DNA of 64,000 bases, from the NCBI GenBank assembly GCA_964640795.1, contig CAZXIN010000003.1, forward strand, positions 60,262 to 124,261, given 5' to 3'. Each line of letters begins with the position of its first letter. The stretch's first letter is position 1. The position numbers and the translations under genes are program-made. Below are positions 1-11,605 of the stretch, piece after piece. The DNA is from an uncultured Pseudoalteromonadaceae bacterium (GTDB lineage: Bacteria; Pseudomonadota; Gammaproteobacteria; Enterobacterales; Alteromonadaceae). The notes beneath the pieces were generated by a model. It was not told the DNA's origin, did not search any database, and worked only from the letters and a program-made list of their open reading frames with translations.

Positions 1-1468
1 CTTCATCAACAAGCTCCAGATCTGAGCTGTCTATATTGACTTCATTTGTCTCAGCTTCCTCCTCCGCATCATCGCTACCGGTAGCGATGCGCAGTTCTCG
101 TATGATGAGGTCTTCATCTGTACCAAAAGGCTGTTCAGGTGAGGGAGCATCAACACTGACGGTAATAGTATCTATTGATACATCGCCTCTGCTTCCGTCG
201 TTCACTTCACCTGAGAGCCTGAGTTGAAAAGGCGTCAGTACGAAGTCACTCAAATCAACCACAGCCTTACTCCAGCTGACACCCGATGTATGTTGTTCGC
301 CCTCTCGTAGCCACAACTGTTGCCATGATTCGCCATTGTCGGTCGTAATTTCAAAAGCTAACGACCCGATGTCATCACCGTACATTAGATAGAAAAACTC
401 AGCGTATGCTGTTGGTTGACTAGTGAAGTCGTAACAAGGACTGAGTAGATTAACTTTGTCGTTAGGTAGCAGTAGGCTGTTCCCTGAGTCGATATGAATA
501 AAGCTATGTCCTTCTACAGGACCATTAGCGCCTGTACTTGAGCTGTCTGTGTCAAAGTCGAACGCCCAGTTAAAATTGTCGTTGAAGGCATCTTGCGTCC
601 AAATGTTCGGCGCAAGCTCGTCATTGTAGTTAAGCCCATCGCGATGTGGGAATTGAGTGACTAGGCTGGAGTTTGCACAAGTTGGATTGTTTCCTTCTCC
701 ATATTTGTCATGTAGATGAAACTTGTCGGTAGCTAAGATCTTAGCTATACGCCTGAACTGTTGAGGGCTATACCGGCTGCGGCAAACATTCTGTCCTCTA
801 CCCATGTAGTTAAAACCATCAGGGTTAAAGGCGGTCCCTTCACTGTCTGTATCATCGGCTTGATAGATACATTCACTGTAGTTGCTGCGGCTACCCGGAT
901 CGACAGGGGTGTCTATTAAGCCGTCACCATAGCGCCAACCTAATACGCCTTCTTGCTCTCGTATTGGAGCATCATCAACACCAGAGAATGTATGTCTTAA
1001 GCTAACATTGTGCCCAAACTCATGAATGATAGTGGTCGTTGCTAAATTTTCGGGCTCCACTTCTATGGTATCTGTCGCTTCTTCATGCCGATAGGCGTGA
1101 CCATTTGAACCGTCTAAATCAGCGACAATGATATTGAGGTTTCCGTAAATAAAGAAAGGTCTGGCATCTTCTTCGTCATCGGTATTCCAATCACCATCGT
1201 TAATTCCCGGAACATCTTCACTCGTCACATAGGTGATGTTCTCAATAACAAAGTTGACGTCTATAGGTGCATAACCAGTATTTAGCTGGTTTAGACCGTC
1301 CTGTAAGTCGCTTAATGAAGCTTGAGCCTCAGTACCATCGTTGTCGCTTGCAGCAACAATATAGTGAATGGGAATAGTGATATCTGCAAAGCTAAAAGCA
1401 CTAAAACAAAGTGCTGAAGCCGCGACAGATGTGATTGCAAAGCTGAGTTTTTTCTTCTTATTTGGCAT
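1..1468 (-). CDS. Secreted M43 (pappalysin-like) zinc metalloprotease with MAM domain; runs off the window start (3' partial)
   Basis: Not in the ORF track because there is no stop in the window; translated by hand from ATG at 1468. Signal peptide MPNKKKKLSFAITSVAASALCFSAFSFA, zinc motif HEFGHNVSLRH, Met-turn FNYMG, MAM-like segment (WAFDFDTDSSSTG...LLSPCYDF...FFYLMYGDDIGSL...WSKAVVDLS), then DDAEE...SSDLELVD. The frame is open to base 1. Confidence 0.85.
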   Translation of the reverse strand, partial: MPNKKKKLSFAITSVAASALCFSAFSFADITIPIHYIVAASDNDGTEAQASLSDLQDGLNQLNTGYAPIDVNFVIENITYVTSEDVPGINDGDWNTDDEEDARPFFIYGNLNIIVADLDGSNGHAYRHEEATDTIEVEPENLATTTIIHEFGHNVSLRHTFSGVDDAPIREQEGVLGWRYGDGLIDTPVDPGSRSNYSECIYQADDTDSEGTAFNPDGFNYMGRGQNVCRSRYSPQQFRRIAKILATDKFHLHDKYGEGNNPTCANSSLVTQFPHRDGLNYNDELAPNIWTQDAFNDNFNWAFDFDTDSSSTGANGPVEGHSFIHIDSGNSLLLPNDKVNLLSPCYDFTSQPTAYAEFFYLMYGDDIGSLAFEITTDNGESWQQLWLREGEQHTSGVSWSKAVVDLSDFVLTPFQLRLSGEVNDGSRGDVSIDTITVSVDAPSPEQPFGTDEDLIIRELRIATGSDDAEEEAETNEVNIDSSDLELVDE

Positions 1469-1540
1469 AGGATGCTTCCCCGTTATTAATAGTCAACTTG
1501 TATTAATAAAGGTATATCTTTGCAGGGAGCTCAGGACAAT

Positions 1541-1600
1541 ATAGTACACATCCTTTTTAGCTCTTTTATTGCTCGCTTAGTTATCTCTTTTATATCTCTT
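1541..1600 (-). promoter_or_regulatory. Candidate promoter with phased direct repeats upstream of the M43 protease
   Basis: Minus-strand AAGAG/AAGCG repeats (plus-strand C(T/G)CTT at 1561, 1574, 1585, 1596; spacing 13, 11, 11 bp) just upstream of a -10-like TACTAT at 1541-1546. Confidence 0.45.
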
Positions 1601-1636
1601 AAAGCTCTCCAGAGAGGGTAGCGAGTGATACTCAGT

Positions 1637-3763
1637 TCATTGTATGAGAGGGTGTTGTAAAATCTTAATATCTGATTGAGGGTATGCGGCATTGGTAAAT
1701 AAAAGACTGCTATCGAGCGTGTTAATTGACAATCCTTTAACACCCTGAAATGCAGATAACTGAGACAATTCAGTAAATGATTTTTCTTCTAAATCATAGT
1801 GCATGAAGCGGTATTGGTTATTTTTACTTTGTCGATAATAAACCCCATTCTTGTGAAGAACCCAATAATATCGAGTGTTAAAGTGCCTGCGCCTAAGCAG
1901 GCGTGTTGGTTCGTCTTCGCTGCTCAAGTTTTGTTGCCATAAGCGGCCATTGCTTGAAACATAAATGAGTGATGTGTCTGAGATCATATAGCCATAACGC
2001 CCACGATTAAATGTTAGGCGGCTAGGTTCACCGCCAGAGAGTGGGAAGCGGTAGAGTTCTGTTCTGTTATCTTTTGATACGGCTGAAATAATAGCGTCGT
2101 CGTTGAAGCCCCAAGTTGGCCTAGCATGATATTTAAAGCTTGTCTCTAGCAGCGAAACTTGGTTTTTGTGTATGTCTACAATACCAACCTGATATCCTTC
2201 GGTGTCCTTATCTCGTTGAAGAAATGCAATTTTTTGACCGTCATGAGACCAGCGAGGGTACTTTAGTTCTTGACCTTGCTTTGTCAGCTGTTGCCTGTTG
2301 AGTCCTTTGTTATCTGACAACCATAACTCATATTGCCCTGACTCATTAGATACGTAAACTATTTGATTGGAAGCTGAAGAGTAGTCAGGGTAACTATGGC
2401 TAAAATCCGACAACATGAAAGGTTGGACGTTACTAGGAGAATCAGGCAATAAACTTAAACTTGCTATATGATAGTTTTCTATGTGTTGTTGGTAAAATAG
2501 CTCTCCTGAGGCCATCGAAAAAGCAGGGTAACTAAATCCATCAATATTGAGTGGGTTTTGCTTTTTTGAGGCAACGTCAATGACATATCCGCCTCTTATA
2601 TCGGCATTTTGTGACGCATAAACTAAAGACTCTCCCTTGGGATGCCAGGTTAAGCCTAATATGTCACTTTCACCAAAAGTCAGCTGTTCTTCTCGACCGT
2701 TTTGTAGGTCAACCAAGTAAATATTTTCACTGTTGTCGTTATTGCGACGGCTGATGGCGATTTGTTTACCATCAGGAGAGAAAGCCATGTCCCTGTCTTT
2801 GGAGTCGCAGTTTTCTAAGCATGAAAAACGAACAGGCGCATCAGAAAGGTCATCCAAGTTTTTGAAGTAAATGCCGCTGTTTTTATTGTCTTTGTCTCTT
2901 CCAATATAAGCTAAAGTACTGCCATCAGGCGATATGTCGATATATTGGTAGCCGCTACTGCTGCTGCAATTAGCAATTGGAGTTTCAACATGAGTAGATA
3001 GTGTTACTCGCCTGATTTGGCAATACGGTTTAGTGCGATTCTGACTACTGAAATAGAGGTGCTTTTCATCTGGGCTCCAAACAGAGAACCCTTCTTTTGC
3101 ATCGCTATTGGTTAATTGTTTGGGAGGTGCGTCTGGATATTGTCTATCTTGCATATATAAATTGATATCGCCAGCAGAGTTTATCCATTGATAAGAGATG
3201 AATCTGCCACTGGGTGATGGTGCAACAAAGAGCTCACTGCCAGGGTGTTTAGTAAGATGCTTTATATTGAGTATGGGTTGGTTAAGAGGAAGAAGGGATG
3301 TTGAAGTTAAGTATATAACAGTAAAAATCGCAGCAATAAATAGAGTGCTTATTTTGACTATTGGATAACTTAGCCATAGCTTTTTAAGTGTTAGATAGTT
3401 GCTTTTGGGTTGAGCCTCTTGAAGTGTTGGAGCATCTAACCATTGTGGTTTAATCAATAGTCTATACCCAGCCTTTCTGACGGTTTCTATTATAGGGGCA
3501 TCAGTCTCTTGATTTTTGAGATCTTGTCTTAGATGCCAGATAGTGTTGGTGAGAGGCTTTCCCCCTATGCTTGGATCATTAGACCAAAATAATTTTATTA
3601 ACTCTTGCCTAGTGATAATTTTGGGGTATTGCTGAGCTAGGTAACTTAAAACCGCCATTTGCTTCGGCTGAATAGTATGTGTCGTTCCATTGTCAAAATG
3701 AATCGAAAAATCACAAGGCTGGACGACACAGTCGCCAACCTTAAAAGCATTTTCTGTGCTCAT
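1637..3763 (-). CDS. CadC/ToxR-like membrane-anchored regulator: winged-helix domain + TM + TolB-like (PD40) beta-propeller
   Basis: N-terminal OmpR-type wHTH (IQPKQMAVLSYL...IETVRKAGYRL), one hydrophobic helix (ISTLFIAAIFTVIYL), then repeated xSPDG/WSPD/WHP propeller motifs. Confidence 0.88.
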   Translation of the reverse strand: MSTENAFKVGDCVVQPCDFSIHFDNGTTHTIQPKQMAVLSYLAQQYPKIITRQELIKLFWSNDPSIGGKPLTNTIWHLRQDLKNQETDAPIIETVRKAGYRLLIKPQWLDAPTLQEAQPKSNYLTLKKLWLSYPIVKISTLFIAAIFTVIYLTSTSLLPLNQPILNIKHLTKHPGSELFVAPSPSGRFISYQWINSAGDINLYMQDRQYPDAPPKQLTNSDAKEGFSVWSPDEKHLYFSSQNRTKPYCQIRRVTLSTHVETPIANCSSSSGYQYIDISPDGSTLAYIGRDKDNKNSGIYFKNLDDLSDAPVRFSCLENCDSKDRDMAFSPDGKQIAISRRNNDNSENIYLVDLQNGREEQLTFGESDILGLTWHPKGESLVYASQNADIRGGYVIDVASKKQNPLNIDGFSYPAFSMASGELFYQQHIENYHIASLSLLPDSPSNVQPFMLSDFSHSYPDYSSASNQIVYVSNESGQYELWLSDNKGLNRQQLTKQGQELKYPRWSHDGQKIAFLQRDKDTEGYQVGIVDIHKNQVSLLETSFKYHARPTWGFNDDAIISAVSKDNRTELYRFPLSGGEPSRLTFNRGRYGYMISDTSLIYVSSNGRLWQQNLSSEDEPTRLLRRRHFNTRYYWVLHKNGVYYRQSKNNQYRFMHYDLEEKSFTELSQLSAFQGVKGLSINTLDSSLLFTNAAYPQSDIKILQHPLIQ

Positions 3764-3975: not shown

Positions 3976-4326
3976 TCAAACAAAGGCAACCCATTCGTCT
4001 AATAAGTGCTTAAAATCAATCAGGCCGAAGCCACAGATAGGTTGAGAATTATCTGTTTGACCGATAAATTCTGGGTGAGATACTTCGTTATCATTGAGGA
4101 AAAGCTCGACTTCGTCTTGTTCAAAAATAAGATGGTAAATTTTTCCATTGTGTTGGTAATGTGAGCGTTGTCGATTGAGTAATTGCTTGGTGATATCAAT
4201 GATTAATTTAGCTTGCTGGTTATCTTTTGCTAGATCATTGGTTAACCAGTCGCCGAGTGCTTCATATTCCAAATCACATATAGCTAAGGGGTTGCCTAAC
4301 AAGTCATGTTTAAATTGGTAATCCAT
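3976..4326 (-). CDS. yacL: YacL (UPF0231) family protein
   Basis: MDYQFKHDLLG...EALGDWL...CGFGLIDFKHLLDEW pattern typical of YacL; start overlaps the upstream stop (TGATG). Confidence 0.7.
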   Translation of the reverse strand: MDYQFKHDLLGNPLAICDLEYEALGDWLTNDLAKDNQQAKLIIDITKQLLNRQRSHYQHNGKIYHLIFEQDEVELFLNDNEVSHPEFIGQTDNSQPICGFGLIDFKHLLDEWVAFV

Positions 4327-4856
4327 CAGTTTTTTAGCCTTTTGTCTTCGTTGAAAACATAGCCTGTATGCTCCAGCTCAGTGAGATACACTCTGACATC
4401 AAACTCTATTTGATGATAATCAGGCAACATATGTTGGCAGAGCTTGTAAAAAGCCTTGTTGTGTTGCTTTTCTTTCAGGTGAGCTAACTCATGTACCACT
4501 ATCATATTTAAGAATGGTTCTGGTGTATGCTTGAATAGGGTGCTCACCCTCAGCTCATTTTTACTTTTAAGTTTATTGCCCTGAACTCGTGATACATAGC
4601 TATGTAAGCCTAATGCGTGATTAACAATGTGTATTTCACTGTCGTACTTAACCATACTCAACGGCTGTGATTTCTTCATGTAAAGGTTTTTTAGTGACAT
4701 GACATAAGTACGTAGTTCATTGTCATTTGCAACATGATGAGTGGTTGAGTATCGATTTCTTAACCAGTCTCCCAGCTTATTTTGCTCCAATAATTGTTGG
4801 ATATCACGTTGTAAATGGGCTGCGTAATGCGCCAAGTAAGGCAATGGATGTTGCAT
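4326..4856 (-). CDS. ygjP: YgjP-like metal-dependent hydrolase (DUF45/M48-like)
   Basis: MIVVHELAHLKEKQHNKAFYKLC motif; N-terminal LPYLAHY typical of YgjP. Confidence 0.85.
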   Translation of the reverse strand: MQHPLPYLAHYAAHLQRDIQQLLEQNKLGDWLRNRYSTTHHVANDNELRTYVMSLKNLYMKKSQPLSMVKYDSEIHIVNHALGLHSYVSRVQGNKLKSKNELRVSTLFKHTPEPFLNMIVVHELAHLKEKQHNKAFYKLCQHMLPDYHQIEFDVRVYLTELEHTGYVFNEDKRLKN

Positions 4857-10709: not shown

Positions 10710-11605
10710 TACATCAATCGCTGTTTTTCTATACGTCGATAATGCAGTGGTGATTGATTCGTTGCTCTTTTGAATGAACGACTAAAGTACGAACTGTTTT
10801 TGAAACCAAGGTGTTGCGATATAACACCGACGTCTTGGTCTGTGTGAACTAACAAACGACGTGCTTCAGAGGTAACACGTGAGTGAATCAATTGACTTGC
10901 TTTCGTACCTAAGTGTTTTTGACAGAGGAAATTTAGGTGCCCTGGCGTCAGGTTTAATAGGTCAGCGTATTCAGCGACGCTTTGTGTCGTCTTAAAGTGC
11001 TGTTCTATTAATTGTCTAAAGCGAGAGATCGTCTGATGAGAAACATGATCGAGCTTCTGGCCATTCTGTAATGCATACCAACGATTAATTTTAACGAGAA
11101 CCTCATAAGCAATTGCGCGCAAAAGGTGGGGGCTGTCGTCACTCAGATCGTGTATCTCATCACGCATGGCGTTGAAACGCTCTTTTAAGTATTGCTGTTG
11201 TTCTGCAGTGACAGTTAAAGACAAGGGGCCTGATCCTGTATGAAAGTAACGTAATCTGTGCAGAAATAAGGCGTCGTTGAAATGTTCCAATAAAAACTCA
11301 GACGGAAAAAATAAGCACAGGCCATCTAAGTCGTCGGCAAACCAGCGCCTTACTTGTCCTGGTGACGTAAAAAATAATGTGTTAGGTAAAATAGTATGTT
11401 GTTCGTTATCCAGCCAAAAGTCACCTGTTCCATGGGAAATAAGCGTAATGTCATAGAAGCTTAGCCGATATGGCTGCATCGATTTTTCAAATGTTGGCAT
11501 TTCATGTATCCAAGCGACATCAATCAGTAATTCAGGCCCGTATTTTTGTTTTGAAAACTCGATGTTTTTAACATCGTTTATGACGGAGGTTTGTTTAATA
11601 CTCAT
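10709..11605 (-). CDS. AraC family transcriptional regulator (cupin + HTH)
   Basis: N-terminal cupin (FYDITLISHGTG), C-terminal SVAEYADLLNLTPGHLN...LGFKNSSYFSRSFKR. Confidence 0.92.
   Translation of the reverse strand: MSIKQTSVINDVKNIEFSKQKYGPELLIDVAWIHEMPTFEKSMQPYRLSFYDITLISHGTGDFWLDNEQHTILPNTLFFTSPGQVRRWFADDLDGLCLFFPSEFLLEHFNDALFLHRLRYFHTGSGPLSLTVTAEQQQYLKERFNAMRDEIHDLSDDSPHLLRAIAYEVLVKINRWYALQNGQKLDHVSHQTISRFRQLIEQHFKTTQSVAEYADLLNLTPGHLNFLCQKHLGTKASQLIHSRVTSEARRLLVHTDQDVGVISQHLGFKNSSYFSRSFKRATNQSPLHYRRIEKQRLM

Follow-up and report, generated by a model that had tools for sequence, protein, structure and literature searches.

The 64,000-nucleotide window analyzed here (G000:C3:60262-124261) belongs to G000, a 5.3-Mb seawater metagenome-assembled genome, and begins with two genes on the minus strand, one for a secreted metalloprotease and one for a 708-residue membrane-anchored regulator. 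We consider it probable that the regulator is an inner-membrane one-component transcription factor whose winged helix binds about four 11-bp repeats in the spacer between the two genes and whose periplasmic double propeller acts as the sensor. It would control the operon of the protease and a cohesin in cis, and further units on two other contigs, C31 and C7, in trans. Throughout, C-numbers denote contigs of G000 and L-numbers denote the homologous loci that were compared. The features concerned are the following.

1637..3763, minus strand: gene for the 708-residue membrane-anchored one-component regulator (open reading frame, Pfam, NCBIfam, AlphaFold2 and fold matches).
3449..3763, minus strand: cytoplasmic OmpR/PhoB-type winged helix, residues 1-105 (Trans_reg_C match and N-terminal alignment).
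3299..3364, minus strand: single transmembrane helix, residues 134-155 (AlphaFold2 helix).
1640..3268, minus strand: periplasmic tandem PD40/TolB-type beta-propeller, residues 166-708 (PD40, DPPIV_N and TolB-model matches, strand count and fold matches).
1559..1608, minus strand: predicted operator of 11-bp-phased direct repeats (coordinates, unit order of L064 and L065, rank in the matrix scan, region-wise p value).
1511..1539, minus strand: candidate core promoter TTGTCC-N17-TATACC (proposed from the TTGnnn-N17-TATACC arrangement kept in L056).
1492..1500, minus strand: conserved block CAAGTTGAC (alignment with L056, where the block is CAAGTCGAC).
2..1468, minus strand: first 489 codons of the secreted metzincin (M43-like) and MAM protease, whose gene runs past the window start (open reading frame, Pfam and fold matches).
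G000:C3:59037-59642, just outside the window start: 201-residue reading frame for a cohesin/PEP-CTERM-like anchor, whose start overlaps the protease stop codon.

The Pfam scan detected a Trans_reg_C domain at residues 29-102 of the regulator (50.5 bits, cut-off 26.2) and PD40 and DPPIV_N matches in its beta region, with no match to Response_reg (the receiver domain) or to Reg_prop/Y_Y_Y (PF07494, PF07495). The domain architecture is directly visible in an AlphaFold2 model built on 56 homologues, which reached a mean predicted local distance difference test (pLDDT) score of 89.4: a winged helix (residues 1-105) is followed by a disordered linker (113-132), a transmembrane helix (134-155) and an all-beta region (166-708) of about 52 strands, or roughly 13 blades. 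The best fold matches in a Foldseek comparison were the tandem propellers 2ymu, tricorn 1k32 and LRP6, and TolB was also matched. Given the number of strands and blades and the matches to tandem propellers, we read the sensor as a double propeller and not as a single TolB-like one. A preliminary description of this DNA had announced a cytoplasmic winged helix, one transmembrane segment and a TolB-like propeller; the first two and the propeller fold are borne out, and the single propeller gives way to a tandem. Two named models were rejected for the whole protein: CadC proper (NCBIfam NF007540) scored 33.3 bits against a cut-off of 400, with an alignment limited to residues 4-111, and TolB (TIGR02800) scored 119.9 bits against a cut-off of 343, its propeller repeats alone matching a protein modeled with two propellers.

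Four cysteines of the beta region (Cys248, Cys266, Cys315 and Cys319) are invariant in the 56-homologue alignment, which fits a periplasmic location. The recognition helix, at about residues 67-80, reads GGKPLTNTIWHLRQ; within it, L71, N73, W76 and R79 are invariant in the 56 homologues, and the pattern L-T/N-N-x-I-W-x-L-R is kept across the regulator family. As modeled, the protein thus has the architecture that defines the ToxR/CadC-type transmembrane regulators.

Homologues occur in Colwellia, Thalassotalea, Pseudoalteromonas, Shewanella, Bowmanella, Alteromonas and relatives. Conserved beside them is a divergent gene for a TonB-dependent receptor of about 1000 residues, followed by one for a Metallophos (PPP-type phosphatase) protein or, in the Shewanella-type and C33 clades, for an S9 peptidase. 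The Metallophos protein (L064:3148-4224; homologues include G000:C31:58662-59747) matches PDB entries 1v73 and 2z72, the Shewanella psychrophilic phosphatase I/cold-active protein-tyrosine phosphatase, at an E value of 1e-87. Several family loci also carry an L-serine ammonia-lyase. Literature searches returned no paper on regulators combining a winged helix, a transmembrane helix and PD40 repeats; the family is widespread and uncharacterized.

The regulator/receptor intergenic regions that were fetched first all contained 11-bp-phased AGA(G/T)(A/G)T repeats reading toward the receptor. A simple rule for such operators (three AGAGRT hexamers, at most 2 mismatches in total, spacing of 11-13 bp) missed the window's own site and was replaced by a position matrix of 22 bp, trained on 12 receptor-side sites only, so that all protease-side sites were held out. 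We then surveyed 79 regulator loci of named genomes, 65 of them with a divergent regulator/receptor intergenic region, and scored both orientations against a threshold of 14. The matrix score was 14 or higher toward the receptor in 63 of these 65 regions and in the opposite orientation in a single one, a direct observation of both the conservation and the orientation of the operator. Across 62 distinct sites, the consensus reads AAtAGAtATTaAAtAGAtaTA, and AGA recurs invariantly every 11 bp. Many receptor sites, as read from their sequences, have TTGTA(G/C) in the fourth unit and a TA-rich hexamer about 17 bp further on, a layout that suits activation. The regulator/receptor region of one locus (L057:88-490) carries a variant operator, three exact 11-bp repeats of TCGAGGTAAAT, which scores poorly with the AGA-type matrix; judging from these repeats, L057 may represent a clade with changed specificity.

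In the window, the two genes are co-directional and separated by a spacer of 168 bp (1469-1636). Read on the minus strand, its operator units are AGAGCT (1608-1603), AGAGAT (1599-1594), AGAGAT (1588-1583), AGCGAG (1577-1572) and AGAGCT (1564-1559), and the unit starts from the first AGAGAT onward lie 11, 11 and 13 bp apart. These are the AAG(A/C)G repeats already noted in the preliminary description, whose spacing the coordinates confirm and whose operator proves to be conserved in homologues. The window has a single instance of AAGMG-N6-AAGMG-N6-AAGMG, and 100 shuffles of it have none. In the matrix scan of the whole of G000, the window operator ranked 8th of 10.67 million positions. Its unit order, the imperfect third unit included, is that of the receptor-side operators of L064 and L065 (AGAGAT, (A/G)GAGAT, AGCGA(G/T), (A/G)GAGAT), whose regulators are the receptor-linked proteins nearest to the window regulator (47-48% identical). 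Region-wise p values upstream of the protease were 2.5e-4 for the window, 3.2e-4 for L058, 1.4e-4 for L059 and 5.9e-3 for L056; with the same matrix, no significant operator was found upstream of the protease at the two protease loci lacking a regulator. In silico evidence, drawn from sequence comparison, thus supports the window repeats as the conserved operator of the regulator family.

The -10 element initially proposed, TACTAT (1546-1541, minus strand), is not kept in the closest locus, L056, and we abandoned it. The counterpart of TTGTCC-N17-TATACC in L056 is TTGCTA-N17-TATACC, conserved despite diverged flanks, and we tentatively regard this element as the best-conserved promoter candidate in the spacer; a consensus promoter scan of the spacer gave nothing convincing. 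The spacer holds no terminator-like site, so read-through from the regulator gene into the protease gene is also possible. Ahead of the ribosome-binding site and after the operator, two further blocks, GATATACCTTT (1508-1518, minus strand) and CAAGTTGAC, are shared with L056, and related G(G/A)T(A/T)T(T/A)ACCT blocks come after the repeats in L058 and L128.

The complete protease gene (G000:C3:59639-61729) encodes 696 residues, with a signal peptide and the zinc motif HEFGHNVSLRH (metzincin HExxHxxxxxH), whose residues H149, E150, H153 and H159 are invariant in 19 homologues. A secreted metzincin reading in the same direction 168 bp from the regulator had been described beforehand, and it is indeed there. 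Its labels fared unequally: the MAM domain (PF00629, residues 290-437) is clear at 50.7-51.4 bits against a cut-off of 26.4, and Peptidase_M43 (PF05572), with a cut-off of 23, is borderline, scoring 23.0 bits in the window fragment and 22.1 bits in the full-length protein. Homologues of the protease carry a PF05572 match, and NCBI calls one of them an M43 family zinc metalloprotease. Solved structures that were matched include MDGA1 and neuropilin, with their MAM domains. The structural model of the protease was of moderate confidence (pLDDT 70.5), with meprins and PAPP-A as its best fold matches (E values from 1e-13 to 1e-9). Residues ~460-635, a region common to large secreted proteins, gave no Pfam match, and residues 638-685 form a type I dockerin (PF00404, 25.2 bits, cut-off 22.9).

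The 201-residue product of the next gene has a signal peptide and ends in a degenerate VSEPP motif, a transmembrane segment, RARHR and a 20-residue tail; its orthologues have VPEPS instead of VSEPP. The protein itself had no Pfam match at an E value of 0.1. Its L058 orthologue carries Cohesin (PF00963), and a profile of five sequences matched, among solved structures, cellulosomal cohesins only (best 3l8q, E value 7.5e-5). The PGAP-CTERM model scored 14.7 bits on the 201-residue protein, below its cut-off of 25. G000 encodes an exosortase (PF09721, 144 bits, C1:111993-112688) and about 13 other PEP-CTERM-like tails. Given the dockerin, the cohesin profile matches and the PEP-CTERM-like tail with an exosortase in the genome, the operon seems to encode both a protease and the membrane-anchored cohesin onto which it docks. 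A second pair of this kind lies at G000:C3:192630-197784, where a 1523-residue dockerin protein is followed by a 191-residue cohesin with a canonical VPEPS PEP-CTERM tail. A module that tethers one enzyme to its cognate cohesin anchor seems to recur in G000. A literature search found no paper on tethering of a protease by a cohesin with a PEP-CTERM anchor.

Viewed from the regulator side, the pairing with the protease seemed a one-off, a view reversed by a search that started from the closest homologues of the protease. The protease is an occasional add-on to the regulator loci of named genomes (about 5 of 79), and its family is rare: 22 proteins at an E value of 1e-5 or less among the scored candidates of a collection of 5.8 billion sequences. 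A family regulator lies within 7 kb of the protease at about 10 of the 12 loci, a recurrent gene association that is observed directly. All of the closest protease homologues (75-54% identical) stand beside a family regulator, in differing gene orders and flanks. L056 keeps the order regulator, protease, cohesin as in the window, with other flanks (regulator 60% and protease 75% identical); in L057, the receptor operon ends with the protease and cohesin genes; in L058, a broken regulator is divergent from the protease; and in L059, the regulator is convergent, directly after the cohesin gene. At L063/L088, L084, L110 and L128/L136, the regulator also lies within 7 kb of the protease. The only protease loci without a regulator are of the dockerin-less Colwellia MT41 type.

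An operator precedes the protease at four loci besides the window, and Pseudoalteromonas luteoviolacea has two operators, directed at the receptor and at the protease, respectively. At L084 (Pseudoalteromonas sp. A601), the coding region of the protease itself contains an operator-like site of 18.3 bits (10777-10798, minus strand), about 390 nucleotides past the start codon, which may be a chance match or an internal site. In the regulator tree, the window protein and that of L056 (support 100) are sister to a receptor-linked protein of the same genus and are nested among receptor-linked proteins, and protease-linked regulators fall in at least 4 clades. Together, these comparisons support, in silico, an association of protease and regulator that recurs in several lineages and gene orders.

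The top matrix hits in G000 were C7:18396, the own site of a C33 paralogue of the regulator, C31:55356 and the window site. The C31:55356 operator lies 172 bp upstream of a receptor and phosphatase operon, whose receptor is 67% identical to the one beside a 51%-identical regulator in G001, a genome of the same genus. Divergent from this receptor, at C31:55080-55169 (minus strand), is a remnant of about 30 codons of a regulator N terminus with in-frame stops, MTVKGAFKIGHYLV*PNSFSIQLNKGSRRA, which matches the L056 regulator at an E value of 1.7e-4. The receptor-side copy has visibly decayed to this remnant, and the window copy is therefore the surviving member of its clade in G000. An unrelated 494-residue reading frame with no Pfam match (C31:53425-54909) adjoins the remnant. 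The best operator match of the genome (C7:18396-18440), at 26.4 bits, stands 110 bp ahead of a stand-alone 358-residue reading frame (C7:18506-19582) with no regulator nearby. Its N terminus resembles Metallophos proteins and has a lipoprotein-like signal; it gave no Pfam match in a scan of its first 75 residues only. Control by the window copy probably extends to the protease in cis and, in trans, to the C31 receptor operon and the C7 phosphatase-like gene. About ten proteins of G000 (contigs C33, C9, C2, C1, C8, C28, C4 and C73) combine a winged helix, a transmembrane segment and a large periplasmic domain in 700-1100 residues. The family recognition helix is found in the C3 and C33 copies only, the others being distant (20-29% identity).

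We propose the following mechanism. Winged helices of the membrane-bound regulator would bind head-to-tail to about four direct repeats of 11 bp that share the core AGA(G/T)(A/G)T, at an operator that in the window lies just upstream of the putative promoter of the protease-cohesin operon. Ligand binding at the periplasmic double propeller would probably switch transcription on, making the regulator a membrane-bound activator beside the promoter; we favor activation over repression. The PEP-CTERM-like anchor of the cohesin would then hold the dockerin-bearing protease on the cell surface. The ancestral target of the family would be the divergent TonB-dependent receptor and the periplasmic PPP-type phosphatase, and three units would now be under control: the protease-cohesin operon in cis, and the C31 receptor-phosphatase operon and the C7 phosphatase-like gene in trans. 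Candidate ligands are peptides or phosphopeptides imported through the receptor, a reasonable guess since the enzymes of these loci are a phosphoprotein phosphatase, S9/M28/M61/M43 peptidases and a serine ammonia-lyase. The preliminary description had pictured a one-component circuit in which peptides or polymer fragments would be sensed by the propeller and would induce the protease that generates them. The operator and the recurrent association now lend in silico support to the link between regulator and protease in this picture, its peptide sensing and its induction step being hypothetical, and it needs amending: the operon also encodes a cohesin anchor, and the conserved partner of the family is not the protease. 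The neighbors of regulator homologues are usually a divergent TonB receptor with a phosphatase or S9 peptidase, and it is from the protease side that the link reappears. Literature searches brought up no characterized example of the pairing, nor was one known to the preliminary description.

Several observations weigh against the proposed control of the protease. A tblastn search found no protease within 8 kb of the regulator at 11 loci of relatives, and the catalytic part of the protease was absent from all 60 relatives searched, so the pairing is lineage-restricted. At L057, L063/L088 and L110, the matrix detected no operator belonging to the protease itself, and the motif similarity of L058 and L059 may stem partly from shared ancestry. 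The fourth unit of the window operator is shifted by 2 bp and does without the GATTGT common at receptor sites, and the promoter assignment is tentative. Public sequence runs holding the window region comprise four seawater DNA metagenomes and no RNA run.

These points bear on three other explanations. One of them, that the pairing and the repeats are coincidental, the regulator serving a distant TonB-receptor operon only and the spacer repeats being functionless, could draw on the lack of a protease near most family members and on the rare and patchy occurrence of the protease family. We nevertheless judge it very improbable, because operator-like sites precede the protease in five separate loci (region-wise p of 1e-4 to 6e-3) and are missing from the two regulator-less loci, and because a family regulator accompanies the protease so regularly. 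Nor is the window operator a relic carried along with the regulator gene, since the canonical operator lies at the 5' end of that gene and here it lies beyond the 3' end. The spacer operator might instead be bound mainly by the C33 paralogue, or by both paralogues, in which case the neighboring regulator would not be the specific controller of the protease. The C33 protein is 33-34% identical to the window regulator, and the presence in G000 of two family members whose recognition helices are nearly alike counts against a dedicated regulator; moreover, the C33 copy adjoins its own receptor/S9-peptidase operon with a high-scoring operator (25.7). However, the window unit order (AGAGAT, AGAGAT, AGCGAG) is that of the window regulator's own clade, exemplified by L064 and L065, and not the C33-clade order AGATAT, AGATAT, GGTTAA, and the succession of regulator, protease and cohesin genes persists in L056. 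We regard binding chiefly by the C33 protein as quite unlikely.

Control by the neighboring regulator could also take another form, namely repression of the protease promoter or action only after proteolytic release from the membrane. Proteolysis controls some ToxR/CadC-type proteins (PMC11484849, PMC7593790). Yet the repeats lie upstream of or overlap the -35 region, and the TTGTA(G/C) and TA-rich hexamer at many receptor sites correspond to the usual activation layout of OmpR/PhoB/ToxR-type regulators, so we consider repression or release unlikely and retain an activator acting from the membrane as the preferred reading.

Upstream of the regulator, at 3976-4856 on the minus strand, are a UPF0231 (YacL-like) gene and a gene with a YgjP-like metallopeptidase domain, whose reading frames overlap by one base (4326). 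These genes are not conserved beside the regulator at any other locus examined.

In the PhoB pho box, head-to-tail direct repeats with an 11-bp periodicity stand next to or overlap the -35 element, often as two adjacent dimer sites. The operator predicted here shares the 11-bp head-to-tail repeats near a -35 element, but its core is AGA(G/T)(A/G)T instead of CTGTCAT, and the protein that would bind it is membrane-bound and lacks a receiver domain. With the ToxR/CadC-type regulators, the window protein shares an N-terminal cytoplasmic OmpR/PhoB winged helix without receiver, one transmembrane helix and a C-terminal periplasmic sensor, as well as, by prediction, phased repeat sites beside the promoter of a neighboring target operon (for the CadC DNA-binding domain, see PMC5430869). 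It differs in that the sensor is a tandem PD40 propeller of about 540 residues and not the periplasmic domain of CadC or ToxR, in that no ToxS- or LysP-like partner gene was seen, and in that a TonB receptor, a phosphatase and a protease are predicted as targets, in place of acid-stress or virulence genes. A survey of such transmembrane regulators (PMC10269533) makes no mention of PD40, TolB or propellers.

A periplasmic tandem beta-propeller joined through a single transmembrane helix to a DNA-binding domain is also found in BguR (bioRxiv 10.64898/2026.01.10.698779), SusR and the hybrid two-component sensors (HTCS) of Bacteroidota polysaccharide utilization loci, which control an adjoining locus for a TonB-dependent transporter and hydrolases by way of a conserved motif upstream of the first gene. 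BguR belongs to another phylum and has the opposite topology, with an N-terminal sensor and a C-terminal helix-turn-helix. The Bacteroidota sensors combine Reg_prop and Y_Y_Y with GerE or AraC domains, and the substrates of their loci are glycans, whereas here a PD40 propeller is joined to an OmpR-type DNA-binding domain, and the associated enzymes are phosphatases and peptidases. The resemblance to HTCS and BguR is one of function and architecture only. The protease recalls meprin alpha/beta, which pair a catalytic domain with MAM, and PAPP-A, the best fold matches of its model; unlike these, it is bacterial and single-chain and has no TRAF or EGF modules. As in cellulosomal pairs, a type I dockerin on the enzyme goes with a cohesin-profile match in the next gene, but here, in a Gram-negative bacterium, the pair would fasten a single protease to a PEP-CTERM-like anchor instead of building up a cellulosome.

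How marine heterotrophs sense particulate and dissolved protein and induce its breakdown is poorly understood compared with the use of polysaccharides by Bacteroidota. For the regulator family described here, which many cultured genera encode, an operator has been defined, a regulon predicted (TonB receptor, phosphatase and peptidases) and the sensor modeled with high confidence. The operon beside its window member further suggests that Gram-negative marine bacteria tether single enzymes to a PEP-CTERM-like anchor through dockerin-cohesin pairs. It is quite conceivable, if still uncertain, that proteins with a winged helix, a transmembrane helix and a double propeller form a large unrecognized class of one-component envelope sensors in marine Gammaproteobacteria, a functional counterpart of the HTCS, SusR and BguR of Bacteroidota, and that they control loci for the utilization of proteins and phosphoproteins. 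Such loci would consist of a TonB-dependent receptor, a periplasmic PPP-type protein phosphatase, S9/M28/M61/M43 peptidases and sometimes an L-serine ammonia-lyase, and would all share one operator of about 44 bp made of four 11-bp repeats; in the lineage of the window, the sensor would have moved in front of a tethered metalloprotease. If so, placing a tethered protease under such a sensor would close a loop of sensing, degradation and import for particulate marine protein.

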